Of a DNA stretch of 64,000 bases, positions 1-45,347 are shown piece after piece. The notes under the pieces are model-generated. The model was not told the DNA's origin. It saw nothing but the letters and a program-made list of their open reading frames with translations, and made no database searches. The position numbers were made by a program, and so were the translations under genes. Position 1 is the stretch's first letter, and the number at the start of each line of letters is the position of its first letter. The DNA comes from a virus (Duplodnaviria > Caudoviricetes), in the IMG/VR virus record IMGVR_UViG_3300014039_000027, positions 1 to 64,000 of that record. The stretch is one strand, 5' to 3'.

Positions 1-345
1 CCCCAGCTCATTTTCGACCTGGCCCAGCTGGGCGTGGACCACATTGTCAACCTCAACGACGGCCACCGCCAGTTTGCCGACCACATCCTCTCCCTCCGCT
101 TCCCCGGCGTCTACGGGGCTGCCCTCGCCGCCGCCCTCAGCGAAAACGGCGTCATGGTCTCCACCGGCTCCGCCTGTTCCTCCGGCGACAACGCCGCCTC
201 CGCCAACCTCATGGCCAGCGGCCTTACCGAGCAGCAGGCGCTGGAGACCATCCGCTTCTCCTTCGACTGGTACAACACCCGCCAGGAGGCATCCGAGGCC
301 GCCGCCATCATCGCCAGACTCGTCCCCGCACTCCGCCGCGGCTAA
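1..345 (+). CDS. Cysteine desulfurase (NifS/IscS group), C-terminal part, truncated by window start
   Basis: Frame +1 is open from base 1; catalytic-Cys loop VSTGSACSSG followed by IRFSF, typical of group I cysteine desulfurases. Confidence 0.85.
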   Translation, partial: PQLIFDLAQLGVDHIVNLNDGHRQFADHILSLRFPGVYGAALAAALSENGVMVSTGSACSSGDNAASANLMASGLTEQQALETIRFSFDWYNTRQEASEAAAIIARLVPALRRG

Positions 346-40059: not shown

Positions 40060-41772
40060 AGTGTGGGCAGTAGTCCGTCTTGGCCGCGAACCCTATCTCA
40101 CAGGCGGAGCAATACTGAATATCTCCCGCGACCTCACTATGGAACGGCACCCATCGTCCATGCACTTTCTGCGTTTCCTCTTTCAGCTCGTCATACAGCT
40201 CACCGAACTTCTTGTTCCAATGCTTCAACCAGACAAGAACCTGAATGCCTATCACAATCCATAGCGCTGAAGCCAGATTCTGTAACAGATTGTCCATCAT
40301 CTCACTACCTTTCTCCAGAACTCACGACGGCACTTATAGCAGTTTGTTCCACGACATTCGGCTATAAGCTTGGTAAGTTCTTCACCCTTACACAGTTGTC
40401 TGGGGCAGATGATTACACTGCCCTCTCTATCAAGTTGTGTATCAGGCCACTGTTCCAGAAAAACACTCTGACGTGTCTTGCGGGGATGTGCGGCAGACCA
40501 CTCCTCTACAGCTGCAACCATCCGTCCTGCGTCTGCGTCGGTTGTGTTCATATAGCCGCCGCGCGGTGTTCCCTTCAACGGGCAATTCGTACAGTATCCC
40601 TGACTTTTACACAGTCTTTTGCGTTCTTCGATGAACCTCACAGCATCCATTTACTTCTCCTCCTGCCGTTTTGCATCAATACTGGCGCAAAGCATTTCCC
40701 AGCATTTATCATGAACATCCAGCCGTACCCACCATCTCTCGTGGAAACTGTATTCTCGCTTTTTGAGTTTGTATTCGCTCCATTCAGAAGGGAATTCAAT
40801 TTCTCTCCCGCAAATGTCGCAAAACTTTTTGTTCATTTACTTCGCCCTCCATCTGCACCCGTCACAGGCGCCCTCGTGTGCTTGTTTGTACTTCCCGCAG
40901 TATTGGCATAGCTCGTTGATAAGGGCCTTGCGGTCTGCGCCCAGCTTCATGTTGCTGCCAAACAGCGTTTCATTGATGGCCGCGTATTGCTCGGCGGTGT
41001 TCTTTGCGCCCTGCAATTCTTCTTTCAGCTTCACGATTTCACAAATTGCATTGCCGTTTGCCGCCATCATGTCGGTCACATCGTTTGGCATCAGGCCGGT
41101 GTCCTCGTAGGCGGCCAATCGGTCAACAAACTCCGCTTGGTATTGGACGCCTTCAAAGTCCAGTCTCCAATATCCGTCCTTGAAATATGTCAGCCTGTTC
41201 ATTCCTGCTCCCCCTTGTACTTTGGCATAGCTGCCCACGCTTTCACACCGTCCCAATCTCCGTGGCTTTCCAACCCGATCAGGTTGTTGCACCCATCGCT
41301 GTCCATGCAGCAAATATCTTTATCCACGCCCCAGCTGGTGGCGATCAAAATCTCCTGTCCATCCTCCGGCATTTCGCAGTCCAGAATGTACGCCGGAAGC
41401 TCATAGCCCGCATACCCTCGTTCAGCAAAGTCAGCCTTTTCCTCCTCAGTAACCGGCCTTTCTGTGATCTCATGCCAAATGATTTTCTCCTCAAACATCC
41501 TGTTCCTCCTTCACCGCCACAGCCTTTGTCAGCTGTGCCATGCCTTGCTTCATGTCCTCTATCTGCCTGTCCCGCCGTGCAATAGCGTCTTTCAAGCTGT
41601 CGTTGGCTTTCATCAGCGCCTCTATGTGCCGCTGCTGGTTCTTGATCAGGTCAGCGGCGGGTCCTGCCATTTTTTCAATGCAGTCTGGGTCGTCAAGCCC
41701 AATCGGGCAATCGTAGCATTTGGCGATTTCAGCACAGCACCGCAGCGCCGCCACGATCTCGTCTTTGGTCAT
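40031..41772 (-). CDS. Six small hypothetical early genes (40031-40300, 40297-40650, 40651-40836, 40837-41202, 41199-41498, 41491-41772)
   Basis: Tightly overlapping ORFs; Cys motifs; RLAAYEDTGL motif. Confidence 0.5.
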
Positions 41773-42215
41773 GTTGTCCCTCCTCTCCATATCACTACCA
41801 TGCTTGGGAACGGCGCTGTCCCCATTGGCTTACCGTCCAGTTCAAATTTCAGCCTACCGCGCAGAAAGCGTATTTCCGCCTTGCCCAATATGTAGTCGTG
41901 AAAGCTGGCGCGGTCTGTCCGGGCCGGTATCAACAGCGCCACCGTTGTCCCCGGCTTCTGTCCCTCCCGGCAGCACTTCTCCGTCCAAATCCCGGTTTCC
42001 TTGCTCCCATAGGGTGGATTGCAAAACACTGTTTCACCCCCCCAATTTTGCCGTAAACCGTCCTCTTTCTGCGTGAAATACCGCTTGCACTTGTGGTTTT
42101 CGTCACTGGCCGCGGCATCCAGCGTAAAATGAAACTCCGCGTCCAGCTCGTCAAACAGTTTTTGCGGTGTCTCCCAGTAGTTCTTGTCACTGGAAAACAT
42201 GACTTCTGTGTTCAT
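41769..42215 (-). CDS. Phage N6-adenine DNA methyltransferase
   Basis: WETPQ, FTLDAAAS, catalytic NPPY, LIPARTD, FLRGRLKF. Confidence 0.85.
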   Translation of the reverse strand: MNTEVMFSSDKNYWETPQKLFDELDAEFHFTLDAAASDENHKCKRYFTQKEDGLRQNWGGETVFCNPPYGSKETGIWTEKCCREGQKPGTTVALLIPARTDRASFHDYILGKAEIRFLRGRLKFELDGKPMGTAPFPSMVVIWRGGTT

Positions 42216-42219
42216 GCGT

Positions 42220-43908
42220 TCATTCCTCCCCAAACCATTTCTTCGTCACCACGATGGGAAACTGCTCGATCTCGCTTGCCCACCGCGCCATGCCTCTGCC
42301 GTGTATTCTCTCGAAAGCTAAGGGGAAACCCCCTATGCCATCAAACAAGCTCCCCAGCGTCGCGCCCTCCGGCAGATACCGCGCCATACGCCGCAGCATC
42401 CACTCCCAGAAAGGCAGGGCGATGGAGTTCCCCAGCGCCTTGTACTTGGGGCTGTCCGCGTCCTTGTGCTTCTTGCCCTTCTCGTCCACCCAGTCGCCGA
42501 TGTCCACCCAACCGTAAGTGCTCACAATTTGCTGAACCCTGCTTTTGCAAATTCCGTATTTTTCGGAAAGCTCTTTCGTCGTCATTTCACCGCTTCTGTA
42601 CAGTTCAACAACTTCCTTTCTCTTTGAAACTGGCAATTTTGTGGATGGGTTGTCATCGCCAACCAAGTATCGCCCATCACGGTGCGCTTTGTGTGAGTTT
42701 TCCTCCGGCGTTAATAGCTGTAAATTGCTAATCCGATTGTCCGCTTTGTCGTTGTTTATATGGTCAATAACATAGCCTTCGGGGATAATTCCATTCTTTG
42801 CAATCCACACCACGCGGTGTACCCGGCATTGCAATTTTGTGTCACCATTCCTAATGCTTACAACTCTGTACCCGTTGACGTTAGTCCCCGCAAGAAGCCT
42901 CGGTTCAGAAAGCCTTTTACCTCCCGGTCCTTTCGTTGTATATATCTTCCCATTCTCGCAATCAACCACAATTTGCCCGGAGGCAATATTGGCTGCAATA
43001 TATTCGTCTTTCGTCATTTCTTCTATGTTCATCTCCATAAACTCCGGATACCCCTGCAGCCGGGTACATTCCAGCGGCGTCAACCGGCGCACCACCATGT
43101 TCTGCACCGGGTATGTCTCCGCATCCTCCCGGTACGCGCAGTTGGCTTTTGCCCGCAATGTTTTCGACACATCCGGATTCTCTGCGCCGAAAACAAGCAT
43201 ATCATTATAGGCATCCTGACCGTTGTAGCTTCCCGCATGAGCGCCGGGAGATAGCGTTCCCGCAACGTCCTGATATGTAAGCGGTATCTGATTGCCGCCC
43301 GTGCCCATTCGTGCCTGTAATGCCGGTGCCTGCTCTCCGCAGTCGCGTATCACATCGCAGGCGTGGGACATATCCAGCACCGCGCAGGGTACATGGGCGT
43401 TCGCATTCAGCGTATGGCACGGCTTGCCAAACTCCGGCTGGCTTCCGTTTTCCTTGCTGGTAATCTGCGTAGTGTCAAAGGCCATCACCGCTGGGGTTTG
43501 GTTCGTCCCGCTGGGTGTAGCCGCCAGTGTGGGCGAAACTTCTTCGCTGTACCCGATACCCCCCGCCTGTGCGCCCTGTCCCGCTTTGAACCCAGCACAT
43601 AGCACGGCTTCACGGTTCAGCCCGCTGTTTTCGCGGGAGCTCAGCGTGGGCGAGATGCCGTCCCCATCGTACACACGCTGGCTCTGCGCGTCCCAAGGCG
43701 TCATGCACATCACCCCGTGTCGGTCGCCTGCGGTCAGCGTTGGGGAGGGATCGCCCTCTTTACCCACGCCCAGCCCATTGCCGCTTCCATCGTGATTGCG
43801 GTTCTCTCCGCCACCCTGCCACCGCGTGGCTTTGTCGTTGATGGGAATTGCCGTAAATATCGTCTGATCGTTTCCCGTGCCCAGCGTCCCGCTTCTCTCC
43901 GTCTGCAC
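42220..43908 (-). CDS. C5 cytosine methyltransferase, C-terminal half (TRD, IX, HNH insert, X, I, II)
   Basis: RRLTPLECTRLQGYP (IX), YKALGNS (X), SLFDGIGGF (I) at the C-terminus. Confidence 0.85.
   Translation of the reverse strand: MQTERSGTLGTGNDQTIFTAIPINDKATRWQGGGENRNHDGSGNGLGVGKEGDPSPTLTAGDRHGVMCMTPWDAQSQRVYDGDGISPTLSSRENSGLNREAVLCAGFKAGQGAQAGGIGYSEEVSPTLAATPSGTNQTPAVMAFDTTQITSKENGSQPEFGKPCHTLNANAHVPCAVLDMSHACDVIRDCGEQAPALQARMGTGGNQIPLTYQDVAGTLSPGAHAGSYNGQDAYNDMLVFGAENPDVSKTLRAKANCAYREDAETYPVQNMVVRRLTPLECTRLQGYPEFMEMNIEEMTKDEYIAANIASGQIVVDCENGKIYTTKGPGGKRLSEPRLLAGTNVNGYRVVSIRNGDTKLQCRVHRVVWIAKNGIIPEGYVIDHINNDKADNRISNLQLLTPEENSHKAHRDGRYLVGDDNPSTKLPVSKRKEVVELYRSGEMTTKELSEKYGICKSRVQQIVSTYGWVDIGDWVDEKGKKHKDADSPKYKALGNSIALPFWEWMLRRMARYLPEGATLGSLFDGIGGFPLAFERIHGRGMARWASEIEQFPIVVTKKWFGEE
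42515..43042 (-). mobile_element. 528-nt in-frame HNH plus HTH insertion inside the methyltransferase
   Basis: RVHRVVW...DHINNDKADNRISNL; low GC; precise removal restores CCG GAC GGT TGG (PDGW). Confidence 0.85.
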
Positions 43909-44552
43909 TAACGCGCCTTTTCCTCCGCCGTCACAGCCCCCCCCCTGATGCGGACTGCATAAGAAGTACTTGTTTCAGCAGCTTCGGCAGATCCTTCCCC
44001 CGCCGTTCCGCCCTCCGCAATATCCCCTGACACGCTTTTGCGGTCAAATTGTATTTCGGATGCGGTGTCTCCTCCAAAATCTGCGACAACCGAGATACGA
44101 CGGCGGCGTTGGGGCACTCCCCAGTATTGCGCGTCGTGAGTTCGCCACACCACGCTCCATCGTCCTCCCACTTCATCGTGGTAGCCCCCCCAGGTAGGCC
44201 AGCCCTTTTCAGGCACTTCAATACCGGGGGCTTCCGGCTCGACGATTTTGATGATTTCTTCGAGCACGGCTGCGAAGTCTTTTCCTTTGTTGCTGCTAAA
44301 GGCTCCGACCACGTTTTCCCACACGAGATACCGAGGTCTGACCATGTCACCTGTCCGTCCATTCCTTTTGTCCGCCTCCCTCATTTCTTTTACAATGCGT
44401 ACCTGCTCCATAAACAGGCCGCTTCGCGCACCGGCAAGCCCTGCGCGTTTTCCCGCGATACTAAGGTCCTGGCATGGGCTTCCGCCGGTGATGCACCACA
44501 CCGGCTCGATCTCCGCGCCGTTGATCTTCGTTATATCTCCAAGATGTACCAT
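43908..44552 (-). CDS. C5 cytosine methyltransferase, N-terminal half (motifs III-VIII)
   Basis: GDITKI, GGSPCQD, WENV, DAQYWGVPQRRRR. Confidence 0.88.
   Translation of the reverse strand: MVHLGDITKINGAEIEPVWCITGGSPCQDLSIAGKRAGLAGARSGLFMEQVRIVKEMREADKRNGRTGDMVRPRYLVWENVVGAFSSNKGKDFAAVLEEIIKIVEPEAPGIEVPEKGWPTWGGYHDEVGGRWSVVWRTHDAQYWGVPQRRRRISVVADFGGDTASEIQFDRKSVSGDIAEGGTAGEGSAEAAETSTSYAVRIRGGAVTAEEKAR
43931..44362 (-). CDS. Overlapping alternative-frame polypeptide, M.EcoHK31I-beta-like
   Basis: LSQILEE...KYNLTAKACQGILRRAERRGKDLP; nested in the N-terminal half; ends just past the G tract. Confidence 0.6.
   Translation of the reverse strand: MDGQVTWSDLGISCGKTWSEPLAATKEKTSQPCSKKSSKSSSRKPPVLKCLKRAGLPGGATTMKWEDDGAWCGELTTRNTGECPNAAVVSRLSQILEETPHPKYNLTAKACQGILRRAERRGKDLPKLLKQVLLMQSASGGGL
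43937..43945 (-). repeat. G9 homopolymer at the three-frame junction
   Basis: C9 on plus strand; G8 fuses the nested frame, G7 or G10 fuse the catalytic frame to the C-terminal half. Confidence 0.9.
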
Positions 44553-44555
44553 GTT

Positions 44556-45347
44556 CTAATCTCCAAACACCACGCCGCACTCGTCCTTCAGCACGTCCTT
44601 GATGTGCCTCCGCTTGATGCGGCCTTCGTTTATCTCCTCTGCCAGCTTCTCCAGGCACTCATACAGGTACGCGATGCTCTGCGTGTCTCGGCTGTCCGCT
44701 GTCTCCTCAAAGACGTGCCAGCCGCACTTGTCTATCAGCACCATCGCCACCATGTCCATGTTCTCCCGTGTGCCTTGCAGCTTGCCTTTCATAAATAACC
44801 GTTCGTCCCGGCTCAAATGCTGCTTGCCCATCGTCAATCGTCCTCCGAAATACGCACGATCTCATAGCACCCGAACCGTCCGCCGTTTCGGTATGCCTTA
44901 CATATCGCGCTTCGTGTGCTGGCGTAGGATCTCCCGGACCGATGTGCCAGTTCCGCCGTGGTGGTGCCCCACCATCGCGGCAGCCGATATTTATCCCGCG
45001 ACACGATCATATACACCGTCGTCATGGCCTTACACCTCCCCGCACCGGCGCAGACGCAGGCTGTCCGCCAGCTCCTGTGCCGACCGCTTTCCCCTGTGCC
45101 GTCTGTCCTTTTTGCTCTCCCAGCAGTTGCGGCACTCCGGGTACGGGCAGTTCATGCACTTGTCTATCCTTGCCTGCGGTTCCCGCTGCTCGTCCACCAG
45201 CGCCCCGCTTAAAAATCGTCCCGTTTCTCCGCAATGTTCCTGCCTGTGGCTCTCCGCCGCGGCATCCACCGTCAGCCACGGCGCCTTGGCGTTTCCAAGG
45301 CTCCGTACAAACGCGCCGACGCTCATCGTTCCCTGCATTGCGTACAT
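44556..45347 (-). CDS. Three hypothetical genes (44556-44837, 44834-45025, 45030-45347)
   Basis: Overlapping ORFs with RBS. Confidence 0.5.

Follow-up and report, generated by a model that had tools for sequence, protein, structure and literature searches.

Homing endonuclease genes are generally thought to survive in essential or useful genes only with the help of a self-splicing intron or an intein, or else to lie between genes. A third way, that of simply being translated through, has been proposed for elements residing in the DNA methylases of actinobacteriophages (PMC11855218, PMC9957025). The ShiLan domain and the insertion in Pacc40 gp60 represent HNH endonucleases hidden in such methylases (Arsenault, Gosselin and Gogarten 2025, PMC11855218; Gosselin et al. 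2023, PMC9957025). The HNH of these elements is encoded in a reading frame other than that of the host gene, with its own GTG start and TAA stop codons, and the product of the host frame is a poorly structured loop (PMC11855218). Methylases of the Taj_79 type carry an in-frame LAGLIDADG domain, which is present in nine related phages and is apparently inherited vertically (PMC9957025). Here we describe a further element, found on the minus strand of a 64,000-nt stretch of phage DNA (hereafter the window), which corresponds to positions 1 to 64,000 of the complete 80.7-kb IMG/VR record IMGVR_UViG_3300014039_000027 of a gut phage. It is a stop-free gene for an HNH homing endonuclease of the I-HmuI type, inserted in frame between motifs IX and X of a C5 cytosine methyltransferase (MTase).

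Comparison with known systems

The insert resembles ShiLan in several respects. In both cases an HNH element of the homing type occupies a conserved stretch of a phage DNA methylase and leaves the host frame open, features of an intein or intron are lacking, the distribution is disjunct, indicating homing, and a translated-through loop is proposed. The splice-free insertion with an open host frame, which characterizes the ShiLan type, is therefore found here, whereas an HNH gene with separate start and stop codons in another frame is not. Unlike ShiLan, the HNH described here is encoded in the host frame without a stop codon and, judging from its sequence, would form a folded, presumably active endonuclease domain. 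The host also differs, being a MTase of the C5 family, interrupted at the linker between motifs IX and X, that occurs in gut phages and several bacterial phyla and not in actinophages. Finally, an HNH_3 domain is combined here with a helix-turn-helix (HTH) module, and in ShiLan an HNH is combined with zinc fingers.

With Taj_79 the insert shares an in-frame endonuclease without intein splicing domains, which AlphaFold predicts to be a domain of its own, with the methylase fold unaffected. It differs from Taj_79 in being an HNH and not a LAGLIDADG endonuclease, and in belonging to a large, multi-phylum family in which insert and host have discordant histories.

The architecture of the insert is that of I-HmuI and I-BasI, the intron-encoded nicking endonucleases of the SPO1 group of phages (PDB 1u3e), with 174 aa in the former enzyme and 167 aa in the insert when counted from Met10. 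I-HmuI is produced as a protein in its own right from a self-splicing group I intron located in a DNA polymerase gene, whereas the insert, which shares only approx. 21-26% sequence identity with it, is fused to its host on both sides and lies in no intron. The HNH inteins that we identified (L095, L137-L185) contain the same HNH_3/NUMOD-type endonuclease in frame within a host protein, but they possess an Intein_splicing domain and end in ...VSHN|T, unlike the MTase-embedded copies, which have no Hint blocks. The common specificity and obligatory co-occurrence expected of a Type IIC/IIG-like single-chain restriction-modification (R-M) enzyme were not observed. The splice-free principle is shared with the published actinophage cases. 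A literature search, whose coverage excluded subscription journals, revealed no paper on an in-frame HNH at this linker.

An in-frame HNH endonuclease gene within a C5 MTase gene

An earlier note on this DNA had reported a low-GC insert of 176 codons whose exact removal restores the sequence PDGW, and both observations were confirmed. The insert of 528 nt has a G+C content of 0.446, compared with 0.598 and 0.600 in its flanks. Its boundaries (43042..42515) fall within codons, at the third base of GAG (E) and the second base of TAC (Y), and are ambiguous by 1 nt because of a repeated A. Removal of the 528 nt yields CCG GAC GGT TGG, i.e. P-D-G-W, which is also the reading of real empty alleles. 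Only the host frame is open across the insert; the other five frames contain 3-12 stop codons each. On the sense strand, the two remaining frames are closed by 8 and 12 stops in the window and by 10-29 in the inserts of the other variants. Positions of this and all other features are given in Table 1.

The in-frame translation of 177 aa (43044..42514) contains an HNH_3 domain (Pfam, E 1.7e-19, residues 74-117) followed by HTH_28 at residues 141-177; the matches to HTH_28, HTH_23 and Sigma70_r4 together span residues 139-177. HNH-endonuclease families of PHROG match residues 11-174. The beta-beta-alpha-metal HNH motif of I-HmuI-like HNH_3 endonucleases is present, and its residues His95 and Asn116 are invariant in four diverged variants. 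In I-HmuI the equivalent His75 acts as a general base and Asn96 binds the metal (PMC3384342). The HTH module continues into the host residues G-W without a stop codon.

The short leader of the insert varies in sequence but has a length of 9 residues in 42 of the 52 embedded relatives. It holds a GGAG motif (43045..43042) separated by a 9-nt spacer from an ATG (43032..43030), as had been noted earlier; the motif is real, but this ATG (Met5) is not conserved among the relatives, so that an internal start at this position is unsupported. The conserved residue is Met10, which is retained in 47 of 52 embedded representatives. From its position in the alignment, this codon is probably where the ancestral endonuclease gene started. 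Met10 may also serve as an internal start giving a HNH-X-I-II product, a role that is weakly supported, because a Shine-Dalgarno (SD)-like motif precedes it in only 3 of 12 DNA loci.

Comparison of the window insert with that of locus L005 gave a pN of 0.14 and a pS of 0.80, values which indicate that the HNH insert is under purifying selection. Between two occupied alleles, the part of the MTase gene downstream of the insert has a dN/dS of approx. 0.09.

The host MTase is encoded by two abutting open reading frames (ORFs) of the minus strand, 44552..43908 and 43908..42220. Motifs IV, VI, VIII, IX, X (GNS) and I (FxGxG) of C5 MTases were all found, which places the enzyme in family PF00145. 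The canonical order of motifs from I to X in one polypeptide was not observed; the order is III/IV-VIII, target recognition domain (TRD), IX, X, I, II, by which the host enzyme is a circularly permuted C5 MTase, a feature that the earlier note had missed. Consistent with this motif order, the C-terminus matches positions 209-250 of the phrog_116 profile and the upstream ORF matches positions 255-390, and the C-terminal sequence ...KKWFGEE would join naturally onto the N-terminal ...VHLGDITK. The permuted order is common to all close homologs.

A tract of nine G residues places the catalytic ORF and the TRD/HNH ORF of the window in different frames. A G7 or G10 tract would fuse them, as in P0007, and a G8 tract would fuse an overlapping alternative frame, as in P0005, while G9 joins neither. 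Therefore the complete methylase-nuclease fusion is not a single frame in the window. The frame that carries the insert also encodes the TRD and motifs IX, X, I and II, but not the catalytic core of the methylase-nuclease fusion proposed in the earlier note. The GTG start codon of the 562-aa ORF overlaps the stop codon of the upstream ORF (TAGTG), and translational coupling of both MTase ORFs is therefore possible. The 562-aa product (cluster P0001) is recorded in identical form on 7 contigs.

Search for splicing features

We inspected the ends of the insert and of its relatives for any feature of a self-splicing element. The junctions of four variants read P|E...Y|G, P|E...S|G, P|V...P|W and P|N...T|W, and none of the four has a conserved intein nucleophile or a His-Asn pair at these positions. 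The insert of the window starts with E-F and ends with T-Y, followed by G; it has neither a C/S/T nucleophile nor a terminal HN. The junctions are likewise variable in approx. 52 protein clusters. Neither the window protein nor any of six further embedded ORFs gave a Hint/Intein_splicing match with Pfam. By contrast, the cousin L137, an intein-borne form used as a positive control, did give an Intein_splicing match and ends in ...VSHN|T. An intein was rejected on these grounds (no nucleophiles and no Hint blocks, with a method that detected the intein-borne cousin).

At the RNA level, a scan of positions 41500-45000 with Rfam in E-value mode gave no match at E<=1, and the ends of the insert do not fit U|...G or GUGYG...AY. 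Free-standing relatives align to insert residues 10 to approx. 175. The HNH homology leaves uncovered only approx. 27 nt on the 5′ side of the insert and no more than 9 nt on its 3′ side. Since this homology fills nearly the whole insert, there is no room for a ribozyme. The empty Rfam scan, the lack of non-coding room and the in-frame, stop-free state in 16 of 16 loci led us to reject an RNA intron. The statement of the earlier note that the ends are neither those of an intein nor those of an intron was thereby borne out.

Two other candidates were also rejected: (i) a hidden gene in an alternative frame, as in ShiLan, because the other frames are full of stop codons, and (ii) ribosomal bypass as in T4 gene 60, since the host frame is coding throughout the 528 nt and evolves there under purifying selection. 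The bypass in T4 gene 60 spans approx. 50 nt.

The intein-borne cousins (L095, L137, L139, L146, L170, L173 and L185) are approx. 35% identical to the insert and carry a NUMOD4 module. They occur in many gut phage contigs and in one Dysosmobacter metagenome-assembled genome (MAG); inteins of the L137 type (e.g. L137:1478-3991, with Intein_splicing and ...VSHN|T) reside in open frames of roughly 780-840 aa. A further HNH match, 33% identical to the insert, was found in the phage record MT121960.1 (34664-35176) under a coding sequence (CDS) annotated as DNA polymerase I. It may represent another endonuclease, either in frame or carried by an intein, in a different type of host gene.

Empty and occupied alleles

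A survey of occupied versus empty alleles, which had been suggested as a check, was carried out on 80 DNA loci from IMG/VR and GenBank. Four of these are occupied (the window, L005, L015 and L025) and 76 are empty, the latter reading PDGW or PDHW. Among 118 close homologs, 107 are empty and 11 are occupied. In the protein search, the insert-free homologs read RLQGYPDGWVDIGDW or RLQGFPD(G/H)WTDIGEW, and empty alleles with RLQGYPDGW also exist (P0010, P0012, P0014, P0016). The empty-site sequence around the insertion point includes CTGCAGGGNTAYCCGGAYGGNTGG. Homologs consisting of a continuous single ORF were also identified (P0007, P0009, P0067). The inserts of the four occupied loci are only 52-77% identical at the aa level, yet each of them adds exactly 176 codons, and in each the host frame alone is open, with 3-29 stops in the other five frames.

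An exhaustive phmmer search with the insert as the query (family cut-off E<1e-30) yielded 58 cluster representatives, and approx. 52 of the best hits carry the module internally and at the same site, i.e. directly after R-L-Q-G-F/Y-P and before G/x-W-T...G-N-S/A. A search at the DNA level for full-length relatives (at least 46% identity) was added to avoid gene-caller bias. It revealed 12 further loci, all in frame on both sides at the IX/X site, which brings the total with the first four to 16 of 16. The further loci are derived from MAGs of Lachnospiraceae, Paludibacteraceae and Verrucomicrobiota, as well as from phage contigs, and the hosts of the embedded HNH span the phyla Bacillota, Bacteroidota and Verrucomicrobiota. 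The interrupted MTases include permuted enzymes (L090, L120) as well as enzymes of canonical I-to-X order (L089, L092, L093, L123), and the occupied MTase ORFs (570-1080 aa) are intact and have their catalytic motifs.

A relative from a cultured phage, L001 (Faecalibacterium phage FP_Toutatis, NC_047915.1, 1922-3333), has an empty IX/X site (GYPDGWTDIGEW) and shows 67% identity to the X-I-II tail. Its MTase is annotated as two CDSs, gp14 and gp15, each named 'DNA methyltransferase'.

Mobility and the putative homing site

Comparison of the identity of the inserts with that of approx. 90 flanking residues gave a Spearman coefficient of 0.45, a moderate correlation only, with discordance in both directions. 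Inserts more similar than their flanks were found in the pairs P0002/P0067 (99% vs 70%), P0128/L090 (94% vs 63%) and P0130/P0131 (97% vs 73%), and the reverse in the pair P0131/L005 (75% in the flanks vs 57% in the insert). Pairs of occupied and empty alleles also occur on backgrounds that are 93-94% identical, namely P0002/P0093 (216 of 230 residues) and P0005/P0018 (201 of 216). In all four occupied DNA loci the G+C content of the insert is 7-15 points below that of the flanks. The presence/absence polymorphism at one conserved site, the discordant histories of insert and flanks, and the near-identical backgrounds of occupied and empty alleles lead us to conclude that the element is mobile.

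In a maximum-likelihood tree, the HNH of the window falls into a clade of 13 rows, all embedded (SH-aLRT 98), in which hosts of the permuted and the canonical type, belonging to different phyla, are intermingled. A crown clade of 71 rows consists mostly of embedded forms, and some of its members are calls labelled free-standing. A basal clade is labelled free-standing and the intein-borne forms constitute the outgroup. The opposite polarity, with the HNH as the ancestral state and the empty alleles as deletions, was rejected in view of the low occupancy (approx. 5-9%), the difference in G+C content and the nesting of the embedded forms among free-standing endonucleases.

In the 76 empty alleles, the stretch of 60 nt around the insertion point is conserved at 1.46 bits per position, compared with 0.77-1.03 in downstream controls; upstream controls fall in the indel-rich, poorly aligned TRD and were not relied on. 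The insertion site is thus the most conserved DNA in this part of the gene, as expected for a homing site, and motif IX forms part of this putative site. In 48 of the 76 empty alleles, CCGG spans the precise point of insertion (CC-GGA|C), and CTGCAG is located 9 nt upstream of it in the empty-allele consensus. If the MTase methylates sites of the CCGG or CTGCAG type, its own activity could influence how the homing site is cut.

Predicted structure

A structural model of P0007, a continuous allele that is 99% identical to the window gene and has a shorter TRD, was obtained with AlphaFold2 (AF2) from an alignment of 71 sequences. The predicted local distance difference test (pLDDT) score is approx. 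90 in the catalytic core, 85-97 in the insert and 80-96 in the X-I-II tail. It is below 40 in the TRD and below 50 in the 7 residues of the left junction (345-351), and the model predicts that this junction is a flexible linker. M.HhaI superposes on the model as one rigid body (residues 1..574 vs HhaI 55..325; Z 14.1, root mean square deviation (rmsd) 2.5 Å, 167 residues). Because this superposition extends across the insert, the motif X helix is predicted to dock normally despite the insertion. The N-terminus of the model corresponds to HhaI residue 55, in agreement with the permutation.

Within the insert, model residues 361-474 match residues 4-107 of I-HmuI (1u3e; Z 12.1, rmsd 2.5 Å (VIA)), and Foldseek aligned 1u3e_M at E 4e-6 over 164 of 174 columns, with a full-length rmsd of 8.4 Å. 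The modules of the monomeric I-HmuI-like endonuclease, i.e. the DNA-binding sheet, the HNH and the helical/HTH module, are all present. The high full-length rmsd suggests that, in the model, they are arranged differently from those of DNA-bound I-HmuI, which is an extended molecule with distant termini (PMC3384342).

Proposed mode of persistence and alternative explanations

We consider it probable that a mobile endonuclease gene of the I-HmuI type colonised the linker between motifs IX and X, and that it persists there unspliced, being translated through as a loop domain. The element would comprise a whole endonuclease ORF of the free-standing type, devoid of its stop codon, together with a leader of 9 codons, and its stop-free length of 176 codons would let the ribosome continue from motif IX across the endonuclease to motif X. 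The nuclease itself would form a distinct folded module, suspended from a surface hinge, with the motif X helix still docking on the catalytic core, so that the MTase could stay functional and the insertion would be cheap for the phage. Made as an internal domain, and possibly also from Met10, the endonuclease would nick or cut the conserved IX/X DNA of co-resident phages or prophages that have an empty allele, and repair from the occupied allele would copy the element into the empty one. Such an element could dispense with a separate promoter, ribosome-binding site and stop codon, and with any splicing machinery. In the window the product would be TRD-IX-HNH-X-I-II, generated by translational coupling or after slippage on the G tract.

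The absence of processing, the presence of both activities in the fusion and the empty-allele target are inferred from sequence, evolution and predicted structure, and nicking or cleavage of the empty allele is an activity predicted from the sequence. A functional host protein is favoured because (i) the frame is kept at both junctions in every lineage, (ii) the long MTase ORFs are intact, with their catalytic motifs; (iii) the dN/dS of the downstream MTase segment is low, and (iv) the MTase fold is kept in the predicted structure. The idea of the earlier note that a homing-type HNH is tolerated as a domain in a loop was strengthened by the 16 loci and approx. 52 clusters in frame, the AF2 model and the patchy, discordant distribution.

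Several observations weigh against this reading. In the window, the G9 tract breaks the frame of the host gene. Separate expression of the endonuclease is hinted at by the near-universal Met10, and five gene calls (P0136, P0146, P0159, P0184, P0187) begin at this residue and run into motif X; these could be contig-end artefacts, or split MTases with the endonuclease fused to the C-terminal fragment alone. The extended shape of I-HmuI may not easily allow its two ends to be anchored adjacently in a folded MTase, and on structural grounds methylation and nuclease activities could be mutually exclusive. Moreover, synonymous sites are saturated, which precludes dS-based dating of the insertion. 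The frame break, the retention of Met10 at the position of residue 1 of free-standing relatives, the gene calls beginning there, the possible clash of the extended architecture with a loop insertion and the presence of a Dam-like MTase directly downstream would all suit an alternative in which the insertion cripples the MTase, the endonuclease is made alone from Met10 as HNH-X-I-II, and the element persists since the MTase is dispensable and homing outpaces loss. We regard this as unlikely. The left junction and the leader are in frame and stop-free in all 16 loci and approx. 52 clusters, and such a frame would not be maintained unless read-through from motif IX mattered. The intact occupied ORFs, the low dN/dS downstream of the insert, the scarcity of SD-like motifs before Met10 and a model that keeps the MTase fold also speak against it. 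It is quite unlikely, too, that the HNH has been domesticated in a bifunctional enzyme, co-opted either as a methylation-sensitive nuclease directed at competing phages or host DNA (a one-chain R-M or exclusion device) or as a methylation-coupled nickase. Nuclease and MTase do share one reading frame, purifying selection is strong, with the catalytic residues intact over a long divergence, the family is old and crosses phyla, and methylation of the CCGG found over the insertion point in most empty alleles could affect cutting. However, few of the close homologs are occupied, HNH sequences that are 99% identical are combined with different sets of TRDs, so that specificities are unmatched, insert and host have discordant histories with a G+C content persistently below that of the flanks, the relatives are free-standing or intein-borne homing endonucleases, and the insertion point lies in the most conserved stretch of the empty alleles, as it would in a homing site. 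The compact R-M unit put forward in the earlier note as another option is contradicted by the differing TRDs, the occupancy of approx. 9% and the homing-endonuclease relatives. Finally, an unrecognised self-splicing element, whether a novel intein-like one or an RNA intron with its ORF in frame by chance, seems exceedingly improbable. The site does lie in a conserved motif, as do those of inteins and phage introns, and the same HNH family is found inside a true intein, but no nucleophile is conserved at either junction, Hint blocks are missing although they were detected in the intein-borne control, the endonuclease accounts for the whole 176 aa (Rfam being empty and at most 27 nt plus 9 nt being spare), and an RNA intron would not need strict in-frame, stop-free conservation.

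A more elaborate form of the translated-through endonuclease is a two-state enzyme, in which the extended HNH would pull the X-I-II module off the core and switch methylation off, and the MTase would be active again when the HNH is folded back. We consider this very doubtful. If true, cutting of the unmodified empty alleles of competitors and self-methylation would be mechanically coupled in one chain, the selfish element would have become a self/non-self device for phage-phage competition, and its long-term, cross-phylum retention at the IX/X hinge would be explained.

Compared with the actinophage methylases, the present case is cleaner and much larger, with the whole endonuclease encoded in the host frame as a predicted folded domain, always at one hinge of a C5 MTase. 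It comprises at least approx. 50 sequence clusters from three bacterial phyla and phages, and shows signs of ongoing mobility. The translate-through lifestyle is now directly testable with a well-behaved enzyme pair. The permissive insertion site of C5 MTases could serve protein engineering, and the family would offer natural, putative single-chain methyltransferase-nickase proteins. Annotation of such genes as inteins, pseudogenes or R-M fusions should be avoided.

Features of the host gene and neighbouring ORFs

Table 1. Positions of the HNH insert and of the features of its host MTase gene in the window.
Feature	Position	Strand	Remarks
In-frame insertion, 528 nt / 176 codons	42515..43042	-	Stop-free I-HmuI-type HNH homing endonuclease gene
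HNH_3 catalytic motif	42694..42825	-	His95, Asn116 = I-HmuI His75, Asn96 (alignment to 1u3e)
C-terminal helix-turn-helix DNA-binding module	42514..42624	-	Pfam HTH_28, HTH_23, Sigma70_r4
9-codon leader EFMEMNIEE	43018..43044	-	Between motif IX Pro and conserved Met
Met10, first residue of MTKDEYIA	43015..43017	-	Aligns with residue 1 of free-standing relatives
Catalytic-core ORF, 214 aa	43908..44552	-	Pfam DNA_methylase E 7.4e-22; GDITK, PCQ, ENV, QRRRR
PCQ (motif IV)	44477..44469	-	In 214-aa ORF
ENV (motif VI)	44318..44310	-	In 214-aa ORF
QRRRR (motif VIII)	44111..44097	-	In 214-aa ORF
G9 tract	43937..43945	-	Puts catalytic ORF and TRD/HNH ORF in different frames
562-aa ORF	42220..43908	-	TRD, motif IX, HNH insert, motifs X, I, II
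Motif IX (RRLTPLECTRLQGYP; RLQGYP)	43045..43089	-	Pfam DNA_methylase profile positions 255-291; left exon-like flank
Motif X (ALGNSIALP)	42412..42438	-	Downstream of insert
Motif I (LFDGIGGF)	42325..42348	-	S-adenosylmethionine (AdoMet)-binding loop; after motif X, at C-terminus

An ORF of 143 aa in an alternative frame (43931-44362, minus strand) overlaps the motif VIII region of the catalytic ORF, and contains a protein-like block ...ECPNAAVVSRLSQILE...KACQGILRRAERRGKDLP... The homologs P0012 and P0004 start in the frame of this ORF and run on into the TRD half of the MTase.

The TRD region (43100-43900, minus strand) is highly mosaic. Its modules, ...CMTPWD.QS.R.YD...SPTL... and ...GGNKPAV..., are repeated in differing number and order among close homologs (P0003, P0004, P0009, P0041). 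In this respect the enzyme may resemble the multispecific phage C5 MTases.

A Dam-type N6-adenine MTase is encoded directly downstream (41769-42233, minus strand; Pfam Dam, E 4.8e-28). Its gene shares 14 nt with the end of the C5 MTase ORF, and the phage thus carries two MTases in tandem.

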